Of a stretch of 64,000 nucleotides of DNA, positions 26,817 through 54,527 are shown piece by piece. This DNA comes from a virus. The stretch is taken from the IMG/VR virus record IMGVR_UViG_3300021438_000010, positions 1 through 64,000 of that record. The stretch is one strand, 5' to 3'. A program made the translations under genes and the position numbers. A model generated the notes under the pieces. It saw only the letters and a list, made by a program, of their open reading frames with translations. It was not told the DNA's origin and made no database searches. Position 1 is the stretch's first letter, and every line of letters begins with the position of its first letter.

Positions 26817-28385
26817 TCAGATTTCATGAATTTTATCAACAATAAAAGAGGCATCATTAGCATTAACAGATCCACAAAAGATTAAATTATTACCTTCATA
26901 TAGTACATATTTATACTTTTCACGTACTTTTGGAAAGATTATAACACTATCTAATATACAAGTATCATCTTCTATTGTTAAAAATGACATAACCTGCCCC
27001 TTTGAATCACCTTTAGTAATTGTATAATCTGATAATCTCTGTATGTTAGCTACTATGCACATATCCTTGCCCTTTTTGCCATTAACAATTTCTTTACATG
27101 TAGTGTTAGCGGCAGACGTATCGGAAATTTCAACCTTAGTCATAGTAACAGGACAGCCTAAAAATTTAATTTCTTGATCTACTATCCAGCTGGGGTCATC
27201 TTCCAAATCATAAGGTGGATTGATAAGCAGTTGTATTTCATTCTCTACGGCTTGTTTTCTGTCAGCTTTGCTAGTTCCTCCACCTTCCTTTTTTGTAGGT
27301 GCTAAATCTTTTAAACAGTCTATAAAAGTATCCCATTTTTTTAGTGGATAATTATTTAATATCCAAGTCTGTTCAGATTTAGTAAGAGTTCTGTATATCT
27401 CATAGTCATATAAGGCTTTATTTCTACTGATGCTTCCTTTAAAGTTTCTAAAAAAACCTATTGAAGATAAAGCTTTAAAAGCTGTAGAACTGATATTTGC
27501 ACCAATAAATAACAAAATTTCAAGCCAAGTAAACTTGTCAACACTTTTTCCTAAATCTTGTTCTGCAACTATAATAGTCTCAATCAATTTATCTCCCGTT
27601 GCACCAGTTAATGATTTTATATCTTTGATACCAAAGTATATTTTTCCATTCTTTATATTAAACTTACGATCAAAGTTCGTTAAGCTTGGGGTTCTTGTTT
27701 CAATATCAAATAATTTAGCTTCTGATATTAATTCATAAACTTCTTGATGAGGATCTTGCTTTTCATTGGCATAGTACAAATATGATAGAAAAAACTCTTT
27801 AGTATTGTGGGCCTTAAAGTATGCACTCCAATAGGAACATACTGCATATGAAACACTGTGAGATTTATTAAAAGCATACCGTGAAGATTTTTCAATCCAT
27901 CCGAAAATTTGTTCAGCCTCGTCCTTAGAAACGATTCCAACACGCTCTGCTCCTGCTATAAATGATTTCTTAACTTCGTTCATAAGATCGGCTTTCTTCT
28001 TTCCGATAGCTTTACGAAGAACGTCAGCCTCTTGCAAATTAAATCCAGCAATTTTTTCAGCTATACGCATTGATTGTTCTTGATATACAAGAACACCATA
28101 CGTTGGTTTTAATATATCCTCTAGTGCGGGATGTAAATAGGTTACTTCTTCCCTTCCATGCTTTCTGTCTACATAACGCTGGGTCATGCTTTTACCATCA
28201 ACGAAAGCTTTCAAAGTTCCCGGTCTAATGATAGCAATTAATGCAGAAAGTTCTTCTAAATTCGTTGGTGCTAATTTCTTAGACCAAGACTTCCCAAGAT
28301 TACTTTCTAATTGAAAAATACCCTTGGTTTTACCCTCTGCAAATAATTGCCATGTTGCTTTATCATTATAATCAATATCGATCAT
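26817..28385 (-). CDS. dnaE: DNA polymerase III alpha subunit, C-terminal half (fingers, HhH, OB fold)
   Basis: GIFQLES, IRPG, TYGVLVYQEQ, ADVLRKAIGKK, YAFNKSHS, MSFLTIEDDT. Confidence 0.93.
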   Translation of the reverse strand: MIDIDYNDKATWQLFAEGKTKGIFQLESNLGKSWSKKLAPTNLEELSALIAIIRPGTLKAFVDGKSMTQRYVDRKHGREEVTYLHPALEDILKPTYGVLVYQEQSMRIAEKIAGFNLQEADVLRKAIGKKKADLMNEVKKSFIAGAERVGIVSKDEAEQIFGWIEKSSRYAFNKSHSVSYAVCSYWSAYFKAHNTKEFFLSYLYYANEKQDPHQEVYELISEAKLFDIETRTPSLTNFDRKFNIKNGKIYFGIKDIKSLTGATGDKLIETIIVAEQDLGKSVDKFTWLEILLFIGANISSTAFKALSSIGFFRNFKGSISRNKALYDYEIYRTLTKSEQTWILNNYPLKKWDTFIDCLKDLAPTKKEGGGTSKADRKQAVENEIQLLINPPYDLEDDPSWIVDQEIKFLGCPVTMTKVEISDTSAANTTCKEIVNGKKGKDMCIVANIQRLSDYTITKGDSKGQVMSFLTIEDDTCILDSVIIFPKVREKYKYVLYEGNNLIFCGSVNANDASFIVDKIHEI

Positions 28386-28732
28386 TTATTCCTCGACAAT
28401 AAGTAATTCAATGCTTGAATTAAGCCCTCTATGTTATCTCCTAATCTACTAATCCCTACATTGCAATTATTGCATAGCCATCCGCGAAATAAATCTGTTT
28501 TATGGCAATGATCTAAGTGTAATTTTCCAATTTTTCCACAACAGTCGCATTTGATCGGTTTAGTATGATTGTTTTCCTTTTTAAGTTTGATTAGTAATGC
28601 ATTTATTTTATACTCACAAGATTTACAATTTGTATATGTTCTTAATAAAGAATTATCTTCTGATCTTTGTCTATATCGAAATTCAGATTCATCCTTAAAT
28701 TGTCCACATTTTGGGCAAATCTTATTTGACAT
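28382..28732 (-). CDS. Endonuclease VII-family (HNH) homing-type endonuclease
   Basis: CPKC..CKSC zinc finger; CDCC..LHLDHCH..RGWLCNNCN..G; start placed at MSNKIC. Confidence 0.85.
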   Translation of the reverse strand: MSNKICPKCGQFKDESEFRYRQRSEDNSLLRTYTNCKSCEYKINALLIKLKKENNHTKPIKCDCCGKIGKLHLDHCHKTDLFRGWLCNNCNVGISRLGDNIEGLIQALNYLLSRNK

Positions 28733-29402
28733 ATAAATTTCCGTCAGCAAATGCCTTATCAAAGTTCATGTTCTGATATACTGCACGATGAGTCTTCATA
28801 AGCTTTATGAATATATTAGCTTCATCTTTAACGTCTTGCAATGCATCGTGTGCATTATCAAATGATAGTCCCATTCTTTCTCGTAGTGAGTCCATACTAA
28901 TAGATCTTACACTCGGATCACTCTCTGTCCAAGCAAATATACTATCCATAATGTCAATTTTGTAAACTCTACTAAATAACTTTTGCTGTTCTCTTTCCTT
29001 ATCCCAAGGACCAAATTCTTTGCACAGACGATTGATAATATGCATATCAAACCCAAGAATATTAAAACCTACAGGAATTGGATTATAAAAAGCATCGCCC
29101 TTCCAATTGTATTGATCAACAAATTTGGTAAATTTAGTCCACACTGACTTTAGAGAAGGTGCTAATTCTAATTGTTCTCTTGTCTTTTTAGTAATCTTTA
29201 ATGCTTCATCTTCAATCGGATCAAACCCTGCCGCCCTAGCTTTGTCTTCATCAAATATAGGCTTAATTTCGCTATTGAATTGTCCCTTCATTGTTAAACT
29301 TCTACCATCTAATGCTATGGCAGCAATCTGAGTTGGTTGTGTGCGATGAGGATTTCTGCTTCCAGTTTCAAAGTCAAATATAATATAGTCTCTATTAGCC
29401 AT
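28722..29402 (-). CDS. DEDDh 3'-5' exonuclease (DnaQ/epsilon-like)
   Basis: IFDFETG (ExoI), GFNILGFD (ExoII), AHDALQD (ExoIII). Confidence 0.9.
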   Translation of the reverse strand: MANRDYIIFDFETGSRNPHRTQPTQIAAIALDGRSLTMKGQFNSEIKPIFDEDKARAAGFDPIEDEALKITKKTREQLELAPSLKSVWTKFTKFVDQYNWKGDAFYNPIPVGFNILGFDMHIINRLCKEFGPWDKEREQQKLFSRVYKIDIMDSIFAWTESDPSVRSISMDSLRERMGLSFDNAHDALQDVKDEANIFIKLMKTHRAVYQNMNFDKAFADGNLYVK

Positions 29403-29919
29403 GATAGTGCAATACTCCTAATCCTTTTTCTACCTTATGAATTCTAAATGGGTATCTGGAAAGATCTATTGTGGTTCCTTTAATGGAAAAATCATCAATA
29501 CATATGTAGATATCTTGTAAATTAAAAGACAATATTTTATCAAATTGATTTTTAGTTTCGGATGGATCTACACTTCCGTCTAGATAGTAGAGGTTGTATT
29601 CTGGAGTAATATAGTCTATTCCATCACCATAACAAAGATTAACATCGTAGCCTAGCTGGCTTGAAATTAAATTTGAGTGTGCTAAATGATCCAAGGATAT
29701 ATCTGCTATAGTAAATATTCCACCATTTTTCTTTATATAGTTACCAAATATTATGTCAGACCAACCAGAACCTATCCTAAATAAATAATTATCTAGTGTT
29801 TCTATGGCACCAATTTGAAAAATATTAATAGGCTTATTAGAAAAAGTATTCAATACATTTAAAAATACTTCATCCCTTGGACTAGATATATTTATTAACT
29901 CATTTATTTTGTCTATCAT
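29395..29919 (-). CDS. Class I SAM methyltransferase-like protein
   Basis: IFQIG, TIADI, YGDG, LYYLDG and CIDD pattern typical of Methyltransf_24-like proteins. Confidence 0.6.
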   Translation of the reverse strand: MIDKINELINISSPRDEVFLNVLNTFSNKPINIFQIGAIETLDNYLFRIGSGWSDIIFGNYIKKNGGIFTIADISLDHLAHSNLISSQLGYDVNLCYGDGIDYITPEYNLYYLDGSVDPSETKNQFDKILSFNLQDIYICIDDFSIKGTTIDLSRYPFRIHKVEKGLGVLHYHG

Positions 29920-31531
29920 TAATGATCTCCTCTATTTTCATTATTTTATCAAGAAGGTTTATACCAAGAACATCAAACTTTACATGACCCAAAGCCTCCA
30001 AATCCGACATTTCTAATCCAGCAATTTTTTCCGATGATCCTTTTTGTTTTACCATAGGACATACTTGTTGTAATGGTTCAGCAGATATAACAACACCAGC
30101 AGCATGTTTACCTTGAGTCTTAAATGTACCCTCTATTTGAATAGCCTGCTCAAAATATTCAGCATATTCTCCATCTAATTTGTTGTCTTCTGATAATCTA
30201 CAAAAGTCTCGTAATGCATCAGAATTATTTATTAATGCCCACTTTATAATAGATCTATCTTCATCATCCATTTCTGCTAATTGATCTGAAATTTTAGCTT
30301 CATCTGGAATGCAGTTACTGATAGCATTCATCTCTGCGAATGAACAAGCCTCATTTATACGCAATACTTCTTTTATGGCACTTTTTCCTTGTAGCCTACC
30401 AAAAGTTAACATTTGACTAACTCTTTCATGACCATACTTGTCTTTAATATATGAAATAATTTCATCACGTTTAGTACCGGGAACGTCCATGTCAATATCT
30501 GGTAAAGATATATGATCGGCAGTATTTCGCCCAGCATTATAAAATCGTGCAAACAGAAGATCAAACTCTATAGGATCAATCTTAGTAATACCAATTAAGT
30601 ATGAGATTAAACAACCTGCGGCAGACCCTCTACCGGGACCAGAAAGCCAGCCCATATCATTAACATGCTGTATAATATCACGAACAATTAAAAAATATCC
30701 GAATAGATTAGCACCTTTAATAACATCAAATTCTTCCTTGAATCTACTAAGATATTTCTGCTTATCTTCTTCTTTTGATACTTTGCCTTGATCTATTAAT
30801 ATTTTCTTCCAACCTATGCGACATAGTTCTTTAAGATAATCTTCTTCTGTCGCTCCTTTTGGACACTCAAATTTTGGAAGCATTGGCTTGCTAAGAATAT
30901 CGTAGTCTTCGCATTGGTCATAAATCTTTTTTAGTTTAGTTATATCTAAACCCTTGGTTTCTGTTTTGTCTTTTACATAGAAAGAATCGCTAGTAAAAAA
31001 ACTTAATTTATCTAGATGTTCCTTGGGATATTTATTTTCATCTACTAAAATATCTCCATCTAGGGCTTTATGCAAAGACTTCTTTATCTTTGGTAATGTT
31101 GTCTTCATCTCTGAACACAATAATATTCTATGAAGCTTTGCATCTTCACGATTAGTATAATAGCTGATAGGCATTGATTCGTCGGGAGCATTGAAGACAC
31201 TAATGAGATTTTTGCTAACCTCTAAGCTATCAAAATCTCTTGGTAATTTGCCATTTTCGTCCAATGCTGAAACCATCTCAATCAATTCATACCAACCTTC
31301 TTTGTTCTTAGCAAATAATGTAGTAGCATCAAAAGAGCATCCAATAATAGGCTTTATACCATGCTTTTTACAAGCCTTATAAAATGCTACTGCTCCAGAT
31401 AATGTCTTATAATCACAGATACCACATGCTGGATATCCATTTTCTTTACATTTTTTAGCCAATTCTTCTGGTTTTGAGTAACCTTTTAGCAAACTATAGT
31501 GAGTATAATTCTTCAACGGGAACCAATTCAT
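29900..31531 (-). CDS. dnaE: DNA polymerase III alpha subunit, N-terminal half (degenerate PHP + palm/thumb)
   Basis: THYSLL, KPIIG, GYFLIVRD, GPGRGSAAG, LLFARF, SLPDIDMD, KHAAGVVI, KFDVLG. Confidence 0.93.
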   Translation of the reverse strand: MNWFPLKNYTHYSLLKGYSKPEELAKKCKENGYPACGICDYKTLSGAVAFYKACKKHGIKPIIGCSFDATTLFAKNKEGWYELIEMVSALDENGKLPRDFDSLEVSKNLISVFNAPDESMPISYYTNREDAKLHRILLCSEMKTTLPKIKKSLHKALDGDILVDENKYPKEHLDKLSFFTSDSFYVKDKTETKGLDITKLKKIYDQCEDYDILSKPMLPKFECPKGATEEDYLKELCRIGWKKILIDQGKVSKEEDKQKYLSRFKEEFDVIKGANLFGYFLIVRDIIQHVNDMGWLSGPGRGSAAGCLISYLIGITKIDPIEFDLLFARFYNAGRNTADHISLPDIDMDVPGTKRDEIISYIKDKYGHERVSQMLTFGRLQGKSAIKEVLRINEACSFAEMNAISNCIPDEAKISDQLAEMDDEDRSIIKWALINNSDALRDFCRLSEDNKLDGEYAEYFEQAIQIEGTFKTQGKHAAGVVISAEPLQQVCPMVKQKGSSEKIAGLEMSDLEALGHVKFDVLGINLLDKIMKIEEIINDRQNK

Positions 31532-47938: not shown

Positions 47939-48577
47939 TCAATATTCGTTAAAAAGTTTTCTGAACAATCTTTCAAGTATAAACTTTAATATAACGGGCA
48001 ATACAACATAGATTAGCAAGAATGTTAGTACAACAGATCCATACATTACTTCTGGATCTTGTTTTACATTAGACATTACAAAATCTTTGCAGTCTCTTTT
48101 TAATTGCCTCTTGCTATATGAGTCGCACTCCGCAAAGTTTGTTCCACCTTGGCTAGCTATTGTAGCCCATTCGTTGCCATACTGCAAACATTTTTTGGCT
48201 AAAAAGTTTCTCTCTTCATCTTGATATTCAGCATCAATTTGAGCCTCTATGTCGCTAGTGTCGAAAGAGCTACCAAATAAAGCTTCTGAGTTTTCATCAT
48301 ACGAAAACTTTATATCTGGTAGATACTTTAGCTTTAGTGTACCACCCTCTTTGCCTAAAGTCAAGCCTTGAACATAGGCACTTAGTTTTATGATTTTTTT
48401 CCAAGTTACTTTTGGAAGAGACTCTGTAAAAGATAATATGATATTTTCAGAGGTATCTTTGATTATCTTTATATCTAATGGCTGTGGAAAACTTATATTT
48501 AGATTTTTAATGTCATAGCCATTTTTTGAAAATATAAAGTCAACAATTTGTTTGATTTGCGAAATTGGTATTGCCAT
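47939..48577 (-). CDS. Hypothetical protein with a C-terminal transmembrane helix
   Basis: VVLTFLLIYVVLPVILKFIL. Confidence 0.6.
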   Translation of the reverse strand: MAIPISQIKQIVDFIFSKNGYDIKNLNISFPQPLDIKIIKDTSENIILSFTESLPKVTWKKIIKLSAYVQGLTLGKEGGTLKLKYLPDIKFSYDENSEALFGSSFDTSDIEAQIDAEYQDEERNFLAKKCLQYGNEWATIASQGGTNFAECDSYSKRQLKRDCKDFVMSNVKQDPEVMYGSVVLTFLLIYVVLPVILKFILERLFRKLFNEY

Positions 48578-48578
48578 A

Positions 48579-49055
48579 TTAATTCTTCTGTATTAGTGAC
48601 CAAGCCAAACCCATAAACCTATCTGATAACTTGTTTTTTTCTTCATCTGATAATTTGTGATTATCATCGCCAGTGACCCCAGTGATAAGACCCAATACGC
48701 CATCATCAAACGATTCGTACTTGTCTTTTATAGAGCCTTGGAAAAAATCGGTTGCCGCTAAAACCAAGAGATCATTTAATTGTTGCAAATCAGTATCATA
48801 CTTTTTAATACGATTGGCAAATTCTTGACTATAAATAGCAACTTTAGCCCTATCAGTTGGATCAGTGATCAATGATGATACTGGCTTGACTAGTTCAACT
48901 ATTTCATCACTTGGTTTGTCAATATTTAGAATAGCAACTTCTGGTTTTGGTGATATTGGAATTACACTTAATATTGGTTGATATAAAGCTATTCCTATCA
49001 AAACAAGTGCTAATAAATTTCTGACCTTAAGAAACTTTTCCATCGTTGTCCTCAA
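48579..49055 (-). CDS. Membrane-anchored hypothetical protein
   Basis: N-terminal LLALVLIGIALY TM/signal followed by a helical domain. Confidence 0.6.
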   Translation of the reverse strand: MRTTMEKFLKVRNLLALVLIGIALYQPILSVIPISPKPEVAILNIDKPSDEIVELVKPVSSLITDPTDRAKVAIYSQEFANRIKKYDTDLQQLNDLLVLAATDFFQGSIKDKYESFDDGVLGLITGVTGDDNHKLSDEEKNKLSDRFMGLAWSLIQKN

Positions 49056-49302
49056 TTACTTTGTTTAATAGTGGAAATACTTCGTCTAATTTCTCAGACG
49101 CTACTGTTAAATGGTATTCATCGCATTTGTTTTTTAGCTGATACCATAAACTAACTATTTCCAAGAATCCCTCTTCTTTATTTTCTAAAATTTTGGCATT
49201 AGACTTAGCAAATAGTCTAGACACCCAGTATGGAATATCTACAAAATTAGTTGCTAATATAAGCAGAGCAATTACAATTAACCAAACATTCCACGATTCC
49301 AT
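49027..49302 (-). CDS. Small membrane protein
   Basis: N-terminal WLIVIALLILAT. Confidence 0.6.
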   Translation of the reverse strand: MESWNVWLIVIALLILATNFVDIPYWVSRLFAKSNAKILENKEEGFLEIVSLWYQLKNKCDEYHLTVASEKLDEVFPLLNKVIEDNDGKVS

Positions 49303-49306
49303 CTTA

Positions 49307-49621
49307 TTACCTCTTTAAATTAGTGGTCTTTGCATGAAATGGGCATACTGTTTTATGACCATCTCCTTGAACAATTATTCCTGTACCTTTGCAAACGCAT
49401 TTTGCGGGATCTGGATCAGTATCCACAACTGGCTGTGGTTTTGGATCTACTTTGAAAACCTCTTTCTCTGCGTTGTCAAAAGCTGTCTTACACTTTTCTT
49501 GCCACTCCGTTACGTAAGAAGAGTACATATTTGTTATATCTTCTGGATTAACAGAAAACATATTATTTGAGCATCCAGCAAAAATAACTAGAAATAAAAT
49601 TAATAATATTTTTGTTTTCAT
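49307..49621 (-). CDS. Lipoprotein with a C-terminal Cys/His motif
   Basis: MKTKILLILFLVIFAG-C lipobox; Pro-rich linker; CVCKGTG..DGH..CPFH. Confidence 0.65.
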   Translation of the reverse strand: MKTKILLILFLVIFAGCSNNMFSVNPEDITNMYSSYVTEWQEKCKTAFDNAEKEVFKVDPKPQPVVDTDPDPAKCVCKGTGIIVQGDGHKTVCPFHAKTTNLKR

Positions 49622-49631
49622 AACTAACACT

Positions 49632-49964
49632 TTATTCATTAGATTGTAAAATTGTTACACTACCATCTTCATTTAAATTATATGAACCAATTAGTTTATT
49701 GATTTCTACAATGTCTTCTGGACTTATTGAATTAATAAATTGACCAAGAGAATAATAAAATTCAAACACTTTTTTCGCATCTGTTCCTAATTGTTCTGAT
49801 ATTTTTGTCGCATTTACGCCATTAGGATTATTCCAAATATTTTGTATTCCATTTCTATAAACAGTTGTTATATGCTCAAAAGTCTGAGATGTTGTTTTTT
49901 TGAGAACTCTTGTTACTAATTCTGGCATATTATTGTATGTAATACTCATATATATATTCTCCAA
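49632..49964 (-). CDS. Hypothetical protein (follows the beta-helix protein)
   Basis: ORF directly downstream of the tailspike-like gene. Confidence 0.5.
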   Translation of the reverse strand: MENIYMSITYNNMPELVTRVLKKTTSQTFEHITTVYRNGIQNIWNNPNGVNATKISEQLGTDAKKVFEFYYSLGQFINSISPEDIVEINKLIGSYNLNEDGSVTILQSNE

Positions 49965-49970
49965 TTTGTC

Positions 49971-51269
49971 TTAGGGTCCATACTCACTAAACAATCCACC
50001 AACTTGATTTAAACCTGTTCCACTCCACCCTTGATTTTCTTCAAATCCATTGCCTAGAGTAAGGGTATAATAATTGTATATAGTTATTGGTGTACCTTGT
50101 CTAATGTTATTAAGGTGTACCTCATTTGGGTATGGTTCTATCATATAGATTTCATTTTGCCCAGTAACGTGCCAACCGTCAATAGAAAATAATCCCGCAT
50201 CAAAGCTACCAAACCATTGCATAGGAAGATTAGTTATACGTCCATATATATTTTTTAAAAAAATATGATCTATTTTAGGATTTATCCCATTTCCATTTAG
50301 ACCCCTTTTATTAGCATAACCTATTACTCTTATACCGTTTGTTGAATTTAGATAACAACCATCAACGGTGACGTTGTAAATATCTCCACCCATACCTGTC
50401 CATCTAGGGTCAATTAAATTACCTAATCCAACTCCTATCCCAAGATCCATGTTTTCATCAGTATTAAAAGCTATAGAATCATCATCACCATTAATACATG
50501 AATAGTTTTTAATTAACATATTTTTGATGGTTCCATATAAATGAATGCCATCTTTGTTAGTTCCATATACTAAATTTTCATCTCCATCATCCCAAATTGA
50601 CTGTAAATTTTCTATTACAGTATTTTCTAATTCCATAAGAGCTAAAGAATAAGTTTTTGAATTTTTGATAATGACATCTCGCATTATAAAATTTTTACCC
50701 CAACCAATCCAAAATCCTAAATTCCAAATACGACCATTATTTATGGTAGTGCTACTACCATTATATGGATTAGGTTGATTTAACTCCCATTTTGATTGAT
50801 GTGCCGCATTGCAGTTCCAAGTCCCGCCAATTATTGAAATATTATCATGACTTGGTTCTGTTGGCAATACATATCCAGTTGTTAATAAATGCCAATTTGA
50901 ACCCCCAGTTTGAAAAACTCCAGCACCAGAAAGACATCTTATTGTAGTGTTTCTCCATACTCTTAATGTTGATACCCTAGCTACACCGTCTATAATTACT
51001 TCAAGGGGCTTTCCATCTTGAGCTAAATCAAGTATAGCTTGCAGGGCGGCAGTATCATCTGTACCACCTCCAGTATTTATATTACTATTTAATGCACACC
51101 CATGCTTAGAAGCATAAATAACACGGGATGATTGGGGCAAACCATTTTTTATATTCTCAAAAGTTATTTTTTTAGTAACAGGTGGACTTGAATTGTCTAC
51201 TGTAACTAATAAATCATCATTTGTTATAGATGTTGCTGATGGTAGTTCTGTTATTTTTATATTAGCCAT
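49971..51269 (-). CDS. Pectate-lyase/GH28-like right-handed beta-helix protein (tailspike/depolymerase)
   Basis: IKITELPSAT..DDLL..TKKIT fibre-type N-terminus; GGTDDTAALQAILD; NKDGIH..GDDDSIA. Confidence 0.75.
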   Translation of the reverse strand: MANIKITELPSATSITNDDLLVTVDNSSPPVTKKITFENIKNGLPQSSRVIYASKHGCALNSNINTGGGTDDTAALQAILDLAQDGKPLEVIIDGVARVSTLRVWRNTTIRCLSGAGVFQTGGSNWHLLTTGYVLPTEPSHDNISIIGGTWNCNAAHQSKWELNQPNPYNGSSTTINNGRIWNLGFWIGWGKNFIMRDVIIKNSKTYSLALMELENTVIENLQSIWDDGDENLVYGTNKDGIHLYGTIKNMLIKNYSCINGDDDSIAFNTDENMDLGIGVGLGNLIDPRWTGMGGDIYNVTVDGCYLNSTNGIRVIGYANKRGLNGNGINPKIDHIFLKNIYGRITNLPMQWFGSFDAGLFSIDGWHVTGQNEIYMIEPYPNEVHLNNIRQGTPITIYNYYTLTLGNGFEENQGWSGTGLNQVGGLFSEYGP

Positions 51270-51277
51270 GTTAATTT

Positions 51278-51523
51278 TTAGTTATTTGGATGACCACTAC
51301 CAGTAAAGAAGTAAGCCACATCATCAAACCTATTCTTTAGTCTAGTTTCATTAGCAGTATATGAGTAAGACTTTTCGTATTCAAAAGGGCTTACAAGAGC
51401 TTGATAATTTCCACTGCCACTGATTGGCACTCCAAAAAAACAATATACAACGGCTGAACCGTTCTGAATAGTTTCTCTACCAGATACTACGTTGGTAATA
51501 ACGTCTGTTGTTGTTATGGCCAT
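51278..51523 (-). CDS. Hypothetical protein
   Basis: 81-aa ORF with AAGGGG RBS. Confidence 0.55.
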   Translation of the reverse strand: MAITTTDVITNVVSGRETIQNGSAVVYCFFGVPISGSGNYQALVSPFEYEKSYSYTANETRLKNRFDDVAYFFTGSGHPNN

Positions 51524-51535
51524 TTTAACCCCTTA

Positions 51536-52453
51536 TTAAAATATGTCTTTTAAGGTCCAAGCTACTTTTCTTGGAGGAAAACCGTTTACATCACTATATA
51601 CCCAAGAGCCATTTTGTGCAAGCATTTCTGCCGCATCTCTTTCTCTAATCCAGAAACTGCCATCGGGTTGATCTAAACGTTTTTCACCATTGTTCCAAAC
51701 TCCCCAAGAGTTTTGGACTAAGAATAGTGTTTCATCATATATTTCATGGGTATCATCCATCGCTATCCAAGCCATAGCGTGGCCCCACGAACCAGATCGT
51801 GCTGCTATTCCATACTTATCTCTTCTAGAACTAAATCCAGAATTACTGCATACGCTAATGGAATAACCATTAAATAGTGCATCACGCGCTTGATCTATAG
51901 TATTGATCAAACTTATGGTTTTGACTTGATTTTTCTGAGCATACTTAATTAGTTCCTCTGGAACCCCAGAGCGTCCCCATTTACCACCAATTGCACTATA
52001 TTCTGAAAGATCATATTCACCATACTTCTTACGAAGTAGAATTCCACCCGTTTCATGAACGAATCGTGCAGCACCAGCACAAGTCATACCTTCGCCACCG
52101 TGTCCGCGTGAGCCATAGATGCCTTCCGTGGCACCACGGGCTACGAATTCTTCTCGTTCGCCATTTATAATCTCACAGCTACGTGTAATATCTACGCTAT
52201 TTCGCGTAGCATGTGACACACAGTCACCTTGAACCTGCCTTTCTGACGGTCCAAATGCTGGGTCAAACTTTAATAAGGATTTAAATGGAAGTGCTAATTT
52301 TCCTTTACCGCTTCCAGAAAGATCATGTGCTGCCACACCGAATAGTGGATGTGGCAGTTCTCCTAAGAGTTTATCTAACTCTTTTGGATCACAGTATGAT
52401 CCTACAAAGCCTTCTTTATAGGCTTTTAATAAATCTTTAGGTGTTTTAAACAT
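51536..52453 (-). CDS. Papain-like (C1 family) cysteine peptidase
   Basis: Oxyanion Gln and catalytic Cys in QVQGDCVSHA; His in WGHAM; Asn in QNSWG. Confidence 0.85.
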   Translation of the reverse strand: MFKTPKDLLKAYKEGFVGSYCDPKELDKLLGELPHPLFGVAAHDLSGSGKGKLALPFKSLLKFDPAFGPSERQVQGDCVSHATRNSVDITRSCEIINGEREEFVARGATEGIYGSRGHGGEGMTCAGAARFVHETGGILLRKKYGEYDLSEYSAIGGKWGRSGVPEELIKYAQKNQVKTISLINTIDQARDALFNGYSISVCSNSGFSSRRDKYGIAARSGSWGHAMAWIAMDDTHEIYDETLFLVQNSWGVWNNGEKRLDQPDGSFWIRERDAAEMLAQNGSWVYSDVNGFPPRKVAWTLKDIF

Positions 52454-52458
52454 TGTAA

Positions 52459-52683
52459 TTACTTTGTTGTGTTATCTTTAGCCCATTTAACAACAGTATT
52501 AATAACGACCACGGTAACTGGAACAACTAATGCTGTCATGCTGCCAAGGTCTAATTTTGTTAGATTTTCACCAACATATGTTAATAAGGCTGCTAAACCA
52601 ACTAAAGCTGCATTCTTGCCAACTGCAATTAAATCAGTTGTATTTAATGAAAATGCACCAGAACCACATTTGACTTCTGACAT
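52459..52683 (-). CDS. Holin-like small membrane protein
   Basis: 74 aa with two hydrophobic helices and a charged C-terminus (KWAKDNTTK). Confidence 0.55.
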   Translation of the reverse strand: MSEVKCGSGAFSLNTTDLIAVGKNAALVGLAALLTYVGENLTKLDLGSMTALVVPVTVVVINTVVKWAKDNTTK

Positions 52684-52684
52684 T

Positions 52685-53278
52685 TTATGTCTCCTTGAGT
52701 TGAGAAATGCTTACTAAAAATCCTCCATGCTCTTTATCGCTTATCCTATACGGAAATCCCATCATCTTGACTATCTTATCATCTACTGTTTTTACTATTT
52801 TGACTAGCTTTCTATTCATTTTTAAGCAAGATTTCAATTCATCAAAAAGATCTTCTCTATCTTCTTCTTTTATATAATTTAACCAATCATATCCTTCTAC
52901 GCTGTTAACAACATCTTGTGTTAATTCATAAAAGTTATTATTTGTCCAAGTTAGTCTACCGTGATCGTCTGTTTCAAATAAAGCCACATCATTATAATGT
53001 AAGGCAGCTTTCGTTCGTTGTTCTATTACCTTTTGTCTTTTTTCCATTCTATTAATGGTAGATCTTAAGTCTACAATAGCGTCTTTTAAGCTATTTCCAC
53101 CATTAGTTGTGAGTTCTTTTTTGATTGTTTCTAATGATTTACCAAGTTCTTCTTGTCCTTTTACGAAGTTTAATGTAGGTTTAATTGCTTTGACCCACAT
53201 TATGCTAAAAAATGTTCCTAAACCACCAACAATACTAAAAATAAAGGTGATATGTTCTGGATTTTTTATATCTAGCAT
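52685..53278 (-). CDS. Membrane-anchored coiled-coil + PAS domain protein
   Basis: N-terminal TM; ELTTNGGNSLKDAI; PAS pattern LFETDDHGRLTWTN..F.ELT....EGYDWLNYI.EEDR. Confidence 0.75.
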   Translation of the reverse strand: MLDIKNPEHITFIFSIVGGLGTFFSIMWVKAIKPTLNFVKGQEELGKSLETIKKELTTNGGNSLKDAIVDLRSTINRMEKRQKVIEQRTKAALHYNDVALFETDDHGRLTWTNNNFYELTQDVVNSVEGYDWLNYIKEEDREDLFDELKSCLKMNRKLVKIVKTVDDKIVKMMGFPYRISDKEHGGFLVSISQLKET

Positions 53279-53291
53279 ATGTGCCTCCGTA

Positions 53292-53340
53292 GAAAAAAGA
53301 AGGATAAAGTGCCTTAAGATTTCTCAAAAGGCACTTATCC
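53292..53340 (-). terminator. Rho-independent terminator
   Basis: Minus strand GGATAAGTGCCTT...AAGGCACTTTATCC followed by TTCTTTTTT. Confidence 0.75.
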
Positions 53341-53351
53341 AAAATAACGAC

Positions 53352-53966
53352 TTATTCGTTACTATCTTTAGCCTTGTAGGCAACATTACGTGTTGGTAAG
53401 TAAGCTCCAAACATGTAAGTAAGTTCGCCGGGAACTGTTCTACTTAAAGTTGCAGCGTCATCAACTGCTGGATAATTACCGCTTGTTGATTGATAAGTAA
53501 CTGCTGTGCCAGCACCAGTGCCTCTAGTTAAGCCTGGGAAAACACCACTAGATGGAGTTGCAAGTAGATTAAACTTGGTTGTTGCATATGAACCAACCTG
53601 AGTTGTCTTTAGATTCTTGTTGACAACATATTCTGTTGCACCGCCGGGGATTAATAGTGCAGTACTTGCTGAACCATTGATGTTAGTAGCATTGTCGCCA
53701 GCATTTCTTAATAAGAAATCTGTGCCGGGGGCTGGTGTATAGGCAAAAGTACCAGCACTTTTTACCTTTGTAACACCGTGAGGGTCGGTATAATCAAGTG
53801 GAGCAGACGGTGTATCTTGTACAACGGCTGTGCCATATGATTTTACCAATGCTAAATTTGTTCTAATTGATAGATCAGTTAAATTTTCTGATACTGCACC
53901 GGCTTGGATGACAACGCCGCCGTCATTGTTGTACACATTTGCAGAAACTACTTTTTGGGATGCCAT
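53352..53966 (-). CDS. Putative virion structural protein
   Basis: Ala/Thr/Gly/Val-rich 204 aa; strong AAGGAG RBS; has its own promoter-like motif and terminator. Confidence 0.5.
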   Translation of the reverse strand: MASQKVVSANVYNNDGGVVIQAGAVSENLTDLSIRTNLALVKSYGTAVVQDTPSAPLDYTDPHGVTKVKSAGTFAYTPAPGTDFLLRNAGDNATNINGSASTALLIPGGATEYVVNKNLKTTQVGSYATTKFNLLATPSSGVFPGLTRGTGAGTAVTYQSTSGNYPAVDDAATLSRTVPGELTYMFGAYLPTRNVAYKAKDSNE

Positions 53967-54047: not shown

Positions 54048-54527
54048 TTAGCAGAATTTGTCCTTTATGTTATTAGCTAATTTATGTATTTTACGCCTGA
54101 CGCTTTCTCTATTTTTACCATGTTTTTCAGATATTTCTGATATAGTCATATTACTAATTCTGTCCTCAATCAATTTTTTGTCTTCTTCGTTTTTAAACTC
54201 ATCCATCAAATCTATCATCAAAAAATGATCTCTATCTGATGCAATATTACTATGTAATTTTCCTCCAAATTTATTTTTTTGATCAAACTTAATTTCTTTC
54301 ATGCATTCAATAAAAACACCTTTATATAAATACGTTGTAAACTTTGCACCCTTTGTTTCATCGTAGTTTACAAAAGTTTTCCACAGTGCATTCATCTGAC
54401 AAGTCCTAATTGAATCTGAATCTAATTGATTTCTAAATCGTCTAGAAGCCTTATTCATTATTTTTAATATATTGTCATCTTTCAATGCGTTTTCAATCTT
54501 TACGTTAATACAATCATTCATTTTCAA
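54048..54527 (-). CDS. Phage-encoded sigma70-family RNA polymerase sigma factor
   Basis: Region 2 ALWK...YDETKGAKFTTYLY; region 4 HTH MTISEISEKHGKNRESVRR. Confidence 0.8.
   Translation of the reverse strand: MKMNDCINVKIENALKDDNILKIMNKASRRFRNQLDSDSIRTCQMNALWKTFVNYDETKGAKFTTYLYKGVFIECMKEIKFDQKNKFGGKLHSNIASDRDHFLMIDLMDEFKNEEDKKLIEDRISNMTISEISEKHGKNRESVRRKIHKLANNIKDKFC

Follow-up and report, generated by a model that had tools for sequence, protein, structure and literature searches.

Phage lysis is thought to rest on few classes of muralytic enzymes. Here we describe a block of ten open reading frames (ORFs) on the minus strand of the virus record IMGVR_UViG_3300021438_000010 (IMG/VR), which includes a gene for a 305-aa cysteine peptidase of the papain type (C1). 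The window that we analysed, 64,000 nucleotides with a GC content of about 33 %, is the first 64 kb of this linear 98.6-kb record, for which CheckV estimates a completeness of about 65 %. We propose that the conserved part of the block is a phage envelope-breaching (lysis) module and that its papain-family peptidase replaces a known muralytic endolysin. We give this reading a probability of roughly 0.55.

Among the described systems, the S, R and Rz/Rz1 cassette of phage lambda resembles the module in several respects. A small protein with two transmembrane segments (TMs) and a basic C-terminal tail is encoded directly upstream of a hydrolase without a signal peptide, a type-II inner-membrane protein and a lipoprotein belong to the same gene run, and the holin-type genes are replaced non-orthologously among relatives. 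However, the enzyme of the module is a C1 cysteine peptidase and not a glycosidase, amidase or metallopeptidase, and its inner-membrane protein and lipoprotein behave as domains of an enzyme complex rather than as a membrane-fusing spanin. Two other members, tm91 and PAS197, have no counterpart in lambda, and the module does not lie at the end of a late operon. Signal-anchor-release (SAR) endolysins and pinholins (P1 Lyz, R21/S21 of phage 21) offer another comparison, as a signal anchor at the N-terminus, often rich in Gly/Ala, tethers fused relatives of the peptidase to the inner membrane, and their catalytic domain is predicted to be periplasmic. In contrast to SAR endolysins, the enzyme in the window has no anchor, the fusions carry a helical domain of about 110 residues and a long disordered linker, and the fold is papain-like and not that of lysozyme.

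The best structural matches are xylellain from Xylella fastidiosa (3OIS) and the C1A zymogens (procathepsins B, X and L, and propapain). They share with the phage protein the catalytic Gln/Cys/His/Asn, the NSWG motif and an N-terminal segment that aligns with the pro-regions. The identity is 12-18 %, and unlike these enzymes the phage protein lacks a signal peptide, has obligate exported partners and contains inteins in many homologues. Cys-His enzymes of the papain-like clan that phages use on peptidoglycan peptides, CHAP and NlpC/P60, provide a mechanistic precedent (PMC10318531, PMC7824862). They belong to different families; the enzyme of the module has the complete C1 fold with its two lobes, Gln as oxyanion residue and the NSWG motif. 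The pseudomurein endoisopeptidases PeiW, PeiP and PeiR are also cysteine peptidases of phages or prophages that lyse the host by cleaving peptide links of its wall, and PeiR is a weaker structural match (VIA Z 10.6). Theirs is, however, an archaeal system acting on pseudomurein, from another family and with no exported partner proteins.

The peptidase and its exported partners

Residues C78, H225 and W250 of the peptidase are invariant in 50 homologues with identities down to 33 %, and Q73, N248 and S249 are at least 90 % conserved. These positions correspond to Q19, C25, H159 and N175-S176-W177 of papain. A single-sequence search of the PDB was uninformative. The family profile retrieved C1 proteases only, the best being caricain (1.6e-5), and both catalytic segments were aligned (caricain C25 and H159/N175). 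The AF2 model (pLDDT 94) gave 245 Foldseek matches in the PDB at E<=1e-3, with C1 proteases among the matches listed and xylellain 3OIS on top (4.8e-10); it also matched cathepsins. For a fused homologue, VIA reported Z 20.6 to xylellain and 17-19 to procathepsins. The window peptidase itself has no match to PF00112 at E<=0.1, and a homologue 75 % identical to it scores 25.1 bits (Pfam cut-off 20.7). Among the fold matches in BFVD are phage peptidases of the C1 type with a fused peptidoglycan-binding or muramidase domain. The initial annotation of the window had recognised a papain-like peptidase with a Q/C/H/N set and no signal peptide, and it was right according to the conservation in the 50 homologues, the profile, the fold and the lack of any TM. 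Alignment and model identify the protein as a true C1-like enzyme of the papain fold, with its catalytic set intact and conserved and with predicted peptidase activity. As the VIA alignments extend into the pro-regions of procathepsins, its first 70 or so residues (1-70) may form a zymogen-like pro-segment.

The family is of kilo-scale size, with 1782 close homologues, of which the top 120 are at least 73 % identical, and 1445 clusters at 50 % identity. In the close loci C1 is the best-conserved gene of the block, on par with NrdA. Many homologues (P0121, P0123, P0126, P0128, P0143, P0151) contain an intein with a LAGLIDADG endonuclease, or two of them, and the insertion sites coincide exactly with the catalytic residues: at D77|C78, after H225 or M227, and at N248/S249. 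At the first of these sites the catalytic Cys is the +1 splice nucleophile. The copy in the window is intein-free. Inteins at such sites are a pattern of essential, highly constrained phage enzymes, and together with conservation at the level of a core gene they argue for an essential function of the peptidase.

To define the partners of the peptidase, we compared 32 close loci with synteny and 87 diverse, more distant loci, in which partner genes were sought with hidden Markov models (HMMs) within 2.6 kb of C1. The gene order in the close loci is sigma-like gene, p204, PAS197, tm74, C1, p81, a variable slot, lipoprotein, tm91, tm158, tm212 and nrdA. Among the distant loci, a tm158-like gene was recovered in 75, a tm91-like gene in 74 and a Cys-rich gene, directly downstream of C1, in 72. 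PAS197 and tm74 were present in 29/87, always together (29/29) and directly upstream of C1, and tm212 and p81 were each found in 3/87. The conserved core is the peptidase, the Cys-rich exported protein (a lipoprotein here), tm91 and tm158. The linkage in both sets of loci bears out the earlier view of a single functional module around the papain-type peptidase.

In other phages the same components are encoded as single polypeptides composed of an N-terminal TM, a tm158-like helical domain, the C1 domain, a Pro-rich linker and the Cys-rich module, in some cases followed by a CPPC thioredoxin-like domain. With the tm158 HMM, seven fused C1 proteins were matched collinearly at 3e-8 to 1.5e-4; for the lipoprotein HMM there were three, at 4e-8 to 1e-6. 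A second type of fusion, present in about 20 loci, joins a TM, the tm158-like domain and the Cys-rich module. In the AF2 model of the fused homologue P0158, a TM helix is followed by a helical bundle predicted with confidence (residues 50-158), and a disordered linker connects this bundle to the C1 domain, which dominates the VIA matches. A region search with the N-domain of P0158 returned only two proteins, the PAS197 and tm158 profiles gave nothing significant in the PDB, and tm158 had no usable match in the ESM Atlas.

The signal anchors all read N-in/C-out, and this, taken with the lipobox of the lipoprotein, points to the periplasm as the site where the peptidase acts. On the evidence of these sequences, tm158 and the Cys-rich protein would be parts of the enzyme system, the former as anchor and putative docking partner of the peptidase and the latter as its exported partner. 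The lipobox (L-x-G/A-C) is kept in 12/15 lipoprotein orthologues. The most distant homologue (L030) has no lipobox and carries a CAPC thioredoxin-like extension. Some homologues of the Cys-rich partner possess long metallothionein-like Cys/Gly-rich extensions or a CAPC/CPPC thioredoxin-like domain (L064:6897-8012; L030:10920-11444). Such extensions suggest that redox or metal chemistry may accompany a cysteine protease in the periplasm.

Holin candidates and the search for endolysins

A holin-like small membrane protein had also been suspected in the block. The protein concerned, tm74, has two TMs and a C-terminal tail of charge +3, and its gene ends 5 nt before that of the peptidase. In 32 of 48 loci from lineages without tm74, another family of two-TM proteins (57-62 aa, motif "SRRFW...GDTxRETK", below SRRFW) is encoded between the Cys-rich gene and tm91. 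Three PHROGs, all annotated as holin, are matched by 14, 11 and 8 of 23 SRRFW members (best E 1.6e-5), and the sole other family matched carries no annotation. In 41 non-redundant C1 clusters, SRRFW occurs in 15, PAS197 with tm74 in 16, and both in none. Comparison of tm74 with SRRFW proteins by hhalign revealed no homology. It is typical of holins that non-orthologous families replace one another in a fixed functional slot. As the two sets are mutually exclusive and non-homologous, tm74, with PAS197 as its obligate companion, likely provides the holin function here, so the suspicion was well founded as far as topology and this exclusion pattern can tell.

Regarding PAS197, the assignment is weak. 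Its score against the Pfam PAS models (PF00989/PF13426) is 17.2 bits with a cut-off of 22.6, three of nine orthologues match PAS (best E 2e-4), and the best PDB match of the profile is a PAS sensor at E 0.096.

We searched for endolysins by genome-wide scans with Pfam HMMs for 15 families of peptidoglycan (PG) hydrolases or PG-binding domains, covering the whole 98.6-kb record and four complete relatives. No GH24, Amidase_2, SLT, Amidase_3, M15_4, M23, GH25, CHAP (PF05257), NlpC/P60 (PF00877), VanY, M15_3, PG_binding_1 or Glucosaminidase domain was detected; the remaining two families are taken up below. In 24 further records with the peptidase family, four more complete genomes among them, there was no GH24, Amidase_2 or SLT and one sub-threshold match to M15_4. 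The initial annotation had noted that no muramidase, amidase or M15/M23 enzyme is recognisable in the window. This now extends to the record and the four complete relatives, in which no conventional lysis cassette was found with the 15 families. Within the sensitivity of such scans, the lineage appears to be without a recognisable canonical endolysin.

The same data bear on an alternative in which the peptidase is an accessory lysis factor. Its complex would cleave proteins that tether the envelope (links of the Lpp/OmpA/Pal type, or proteins of the outer membrane) as a last, spanin-like step, and an unrecognised muralytic enzyme elsewhere in the genome would be the endolysin. C1 enzymes are proteases by default, an inner-membrane anchor with an outer-membrane lipoprotein resembles i- and o-spanins, some fused forms contain TonB-like (KPEP)n linkers, and no spanin is recognisable in the close lineage. 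However, the endolysin which this alternative needs was missing from the 15-family scans of the four complete relatives and, apart from the sub-threshold M15_4 match, from the four-family scans of the 24 further records. Conservation does not extend to the lipid anchor, in whose place relatives have a fusion to the inner-membrane anchor, and a spanin that bridges two membranes could not work in this way. The model of the tm158-like ectodomain shows a compact bundle of helices and not a long coiled coil. We consider an accessory role of this kind unlikely. The spanin reading of the lipoprotein and TM proteins, put forward at the outset, is itself weak and probably wrong. The block does contain a type-II inner-membrane protein and a lipoprotein, as a spanin would require, but some relatives have no lipobox, and in others the Cys-rich module is part of the same polypeptide as the inner-membrane anchor or the enzyme. 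The subunits of a spanin must sit in different membranes, and the reading fits poorly because the tm158 and Cys-rich domains are fused to the peptidase or to each other elsewhere. A docking and anchoring partner of the peptidase would describe these proteins better.

We also considered that the peptidase could be a cytoplasmic protease for virion maturation or host take-over, with unrelated membrane genes as its neighbours. The missing signal peptide, the very high conservation and the inteins, which resemble those of other essential phage enzymes, would all suit such a role. Against it, the complete relative G002 (161 kb) encodes a canonical head-maturation protease (phrog_94, 2.9e-27) within its structural block, and the C1 gene lies about 35 kb off, past the end of this block and on the other strand. 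This protease was detected in PHROG scans of mid-sized ORFs together with a RIIB homologue. Genome scans for S78 and S77, the Pfam families of prohead proteases, detected neither, and the control for S77 gave no signal. In other phages the enzyme is part of a polypeptide that has a signal-anchored ectodomain on one side of it and an exported Cys-rich module on the other, and the partner genes are linked to C1 in 72-75 of the 87 distant loci. A purely cytoplasmic protease is very improbable on this evidence and largely refuted. The peptidase as a prohead protease was rejected on account of the separate enzyme in G002, and a virion maturation role, which would have spoken against the lysis reading, was not supported.

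For the preferred reading, a lysis module built around the peptidase, we envisage the following course. The peptidase would be made without a signal peptide and held in the cytoplasm, possibly latent through its N-terminal pro-segment. Acting as holin, tm74 would permeabilise the inner membrane, with the membrane-anchored PAS197 as obligate partner or regulator. The peptidase would then enter the periplasm and dock on the helical ectodomain of tm158 and on the Cys-rich lipoprotein, both exported beforehand. There it would cut the peptide stems or cross-links of peptidoglycan, or a protein that holds the envelope together. In this scheme, the holin activity of tm74, the export of the peptidase through it, the physical docking, the substrate and lysis itself are steps that we infer. 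The initial annotation had likewise placed the peptidase in the endolysin slot. What stands of that proposal is the conserved peptidase module, the holin-like protein and the lack of a recognisable canonical endolysin, and what has to be given up is the depolymerase and probably the spanin.

Several observations weigh against our reading. A sigma-like gene lies on one side of the module and nrdA on the other, in a long minus-strand block with genes for replication and metabolism, and this is not a classical late lysis position. In an unrelated phage, a fused homologue is flanked by DnaB and an AAA ATPase. Enzymes of the C1 family are classically proteases and not peptidoglycan hydrolases, and the peptidase has no cell-wall-binding domain. 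For tm74 and seven orthologues there was no reliable Pfam or PHROGs match to any holin family. The absence of an endolysin rests on Pfam models applied to a very divergent lineage, in which giant structural proteins could hide a lysin domain. GH19 and GH108 were also absent from the record and the four complete relatives, but the positive controls for both gave no signal. PHROG scans of 111 mid-sized ORFs of G002 returned no endolysin among the 25 families listed per scan. Moreover, the CheckV completeness estimates indicate that most sampled records belong to one clade of about 160 kb and are not independent.

Layout of the gene block and its variable slot

All ten ORFs of the initial annotation were confirmed at their coordinates, and all lie on the minus strand with tight packing (gaps of -29 to +12 nt; Table 1). 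Its TM calls agreed with hydropathy and the positive-inside rule, and the terminator that it placed before the run was found as a hairpin with a T-run. The hairpin ends the upstream 204-aa gene and precedes the PAS gene, and a ribosome-binding site GGAGG follows it. An automatic terminator scan missed this structure at 53336-53291, as its loop limit was 8 nt and the loop has 12 nt. A scan for sigma-70 promoters was no better than in shuffled sequence. The TTG start listed for tm158 overlaps tm91 by 29 nt, and the ESM Atlas record of tm158 begins at residue 5. The true start is probably the ATG at 49043. Pfam and PHROGs searches with all ten proteins returned a weak PAS match only, and a pooled scan of 63 orthologues with both gave nothing reliable.

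Table 1. Features of the gene block in window coordinates. Topologies were predicted from hydropathy and the positive-inside rule.
Feature	Coordinates	Strand	Description
Terminator-like hairpin	53291..53336	-	9-bp stem AAGTGCCTT / AAGGCACTT, 12-nt loop, T-run; read directly from the sequence
PAS197	52685..53278	-	One N-terminal TM, N-out/C-in; invariant ELTTNGGNSLKD coiled-coil motif; PAS-like C-terminal domain, predicted cytoplasmic
tm74	52459..52683	-	74 aa, two TMs, N-in/C-in, basic C-terminal tail; holin candidate
C1-like cysteine peptidase, 305 aa	51536..52453	-	Q73/C78/H225/N248-S249-W250; no signal peptide, no hydrophobic segment
p81, small soluble protein, 81 aa	51278..51523	-	Tied to the tail-fibre slot; not core
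432-aa tailspike-like protein	49971..51269	-	Tail-fibre N-terminal adaptor motif, then predicted right-handed beta-helix (pectate-lyase/GH28-like); slot cargo
110-aa ORF	49632..49964	-	Companion of slot tail-fibre genes; not core
Lipoprotein	49307..49639	-	Signal peptide with lipobox FAGC, short Pro-rich linker, invariant Cys-rich module C-x-C-x-G-T-G...GDGH-x-T-x-C-P-x-H
tm91	49027..49302	-	N-terminal TM, N-out/C-in; helical domain of about 65 aa, predicted cytoplasmic; core member
tm158	48579..49055	-	Type-II membrane protein, N-in/C-out, N-terminal TM, helical-bundle ectodomain; core member
tm212, 212 aa	47939..48577	-	C-terminal TM; kept only in the close lineage

A hypervariable slot of 0.1-8 kb interrupts the block between the genes for p81 and the lipoprotein (window 49632-51523; L002-L033) and holds swappable cassettes for tail fibres or tailspikes, i.e. 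receptor-binding proteins (RBPs). The cassettes begin with one of two kinds of N-terminal adaptor, 'IxQLP..DD..TKK' or 'IQLRRG..NPxLxxGEP', and a partner of about 400 aa often follows downstream. The 432-aa protein of the window shares its N-terminal motif with other slot genes. It had no sequence match in Pfam, PHROGs or the PDB. In the ESM Atlas it resembled clusters of GH28/pectate-lyase-like beta-helices (TM-score 0.64-0.74), and its feature neighbours carry PF12708 and Mtd_N. We take its beta-helix-like fold as a lead from structure prediction. Weak homologues of the 110-aa ORF follow the fibre genes in L011 and L016. The beta-helix protein and the 110-aa ORF are absent from many relatives, and the slot of G002 holds p81 only. 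Because the content of the slot varies in this way, both are better seen as inserted cargo. We consequently rejected the "depolymerase" as a member of the module, and the inclusion of this protein and of the 110-aa ORF in the initial annotation did not hold up. The small gene p81 precedes the cassettes in close relatives and follows them in others, and it is duplicated in tandem in L017 (L017:16090-16556). The slot is a hot-spot of receptor-binding diversity remote from the main structural block.

The proximity of this slot brings up another explanation, envelope remodelling or superinfection exclusion. A periplasmic protease complex would trim or destroy surface or periplasmic proteins of the host, such as receptors, and would thereby block secondary infection or keep progeny from sticking to debris, without being the agent of lysis. 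The module adjoins the hypervariable slot and sits among genes that do not look late, and phage lipoproteins encoded beside RBP genes can be exclusion factors, e.g. Llp of T5. On the other hand, a signal peptide is missing from the peptidase in most lineages, and the enzyme would need a membrane lesion to reach the periplasm. A holin-like gene belongs to the module. The lipoprotein does not co-vary with the RBP cassettes, as it is 46-94 % conserved while the content of the slot is swapped. The core-gene-level conservation and the inteins at the catalytic site argue for an essential function rather than exclusion. We regard this explanation as improbable.

Two genes upstream of the block were also inspected. 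The first, p204, encodes a Gly/Thr/Ala-rich protein of 204 aa (window 53352-53966) and has a terminator-like hairpin of its own. It lies near the module in 55/87 distant loci, in varying positions. No family match was obtained for it, and a single-sequence PDB search gave no match either. It may be an abundant structural or decoration protein. The second (window 54048-54527) encodes a 159-aa protein which by eye looks like a small sigma factor, with stretches similar to regions 2 and 4; a PDB sequence search was uninformative. This sigma-like protein, if real, could drive transcription of the module.

Genome context and implications

Besides the block, the record codes for a split DnaE, DnaB, glycosyltransferases, IMPDH and a class Ia ribonucleotide reductase. 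It has no close cultured relative, and the best DnaE matches are about 30 % identical. DnaE is encoded as two genes (window 26817-31531). Among annotated phages, the best matches that share this division into two genes come from Cellulophaga (Bacteroidota) phages at about 29 % identity, which is no more than a faint hint at the host. Relatives that have direct terminal repeats measure 158-167 kb. In G002 a plus-strand structural block of about 70 kb is followed by a minus-strand block with the replication and metabolism genes and the peptidase module. This minus-strand block (L041-L042) also contains a RIIB-like protein (phrog_609, 1e-63), PhoH, ThyX/thymidylate synthase, dUTPase, dCMP deaminase and several HNH endonucleases.

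A tblastn search with the peptidase and one distant homologue found no match in 50,697 GenBank phages, and a scan of prokaryote genome contigs found no relative. The search for related loci with the homologue P0263 returned none. Literature searches retrieved no description of the peptidase family or of the module.

Tentatively, the proposal can be carried further. A very abundant clade of aquatic phages, along with the phages that have the fused form, might lyse their hosts without a classical muralytic enzyme. The agent would be a papain-family zymogen, released by the holin and then captured and activated by a membrane and lipoprotein receptor positioned beforehand in the periplasm. In the lineage studied here a PAS sensor in the cytoplasm would gate the holin and couple the timing of lysis to the energy or redox state of the host. 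We regard this wider scenario as possible but doubtful.

The peptidase family is not rare, being a core gene of an abundant clade of lake and ocean phages with its 1445 clusters at 50 % identity. If the lysis reading is true, a papain-family peptidase with obligate exported partners would be a new lytic effector and a new enzyme class for enzybiotic work. The annotation of lysis genes in viromes would change, as such phages now appear to be without an endolysin. At least three architectures exist in which enzyme, anchor and docking module are separate or joined, and these would make the logic of their assembly directly testable. The pairing of PAS protein and holin would then be one of the few examples in which a sensor domain is connected to the timing of lysis.

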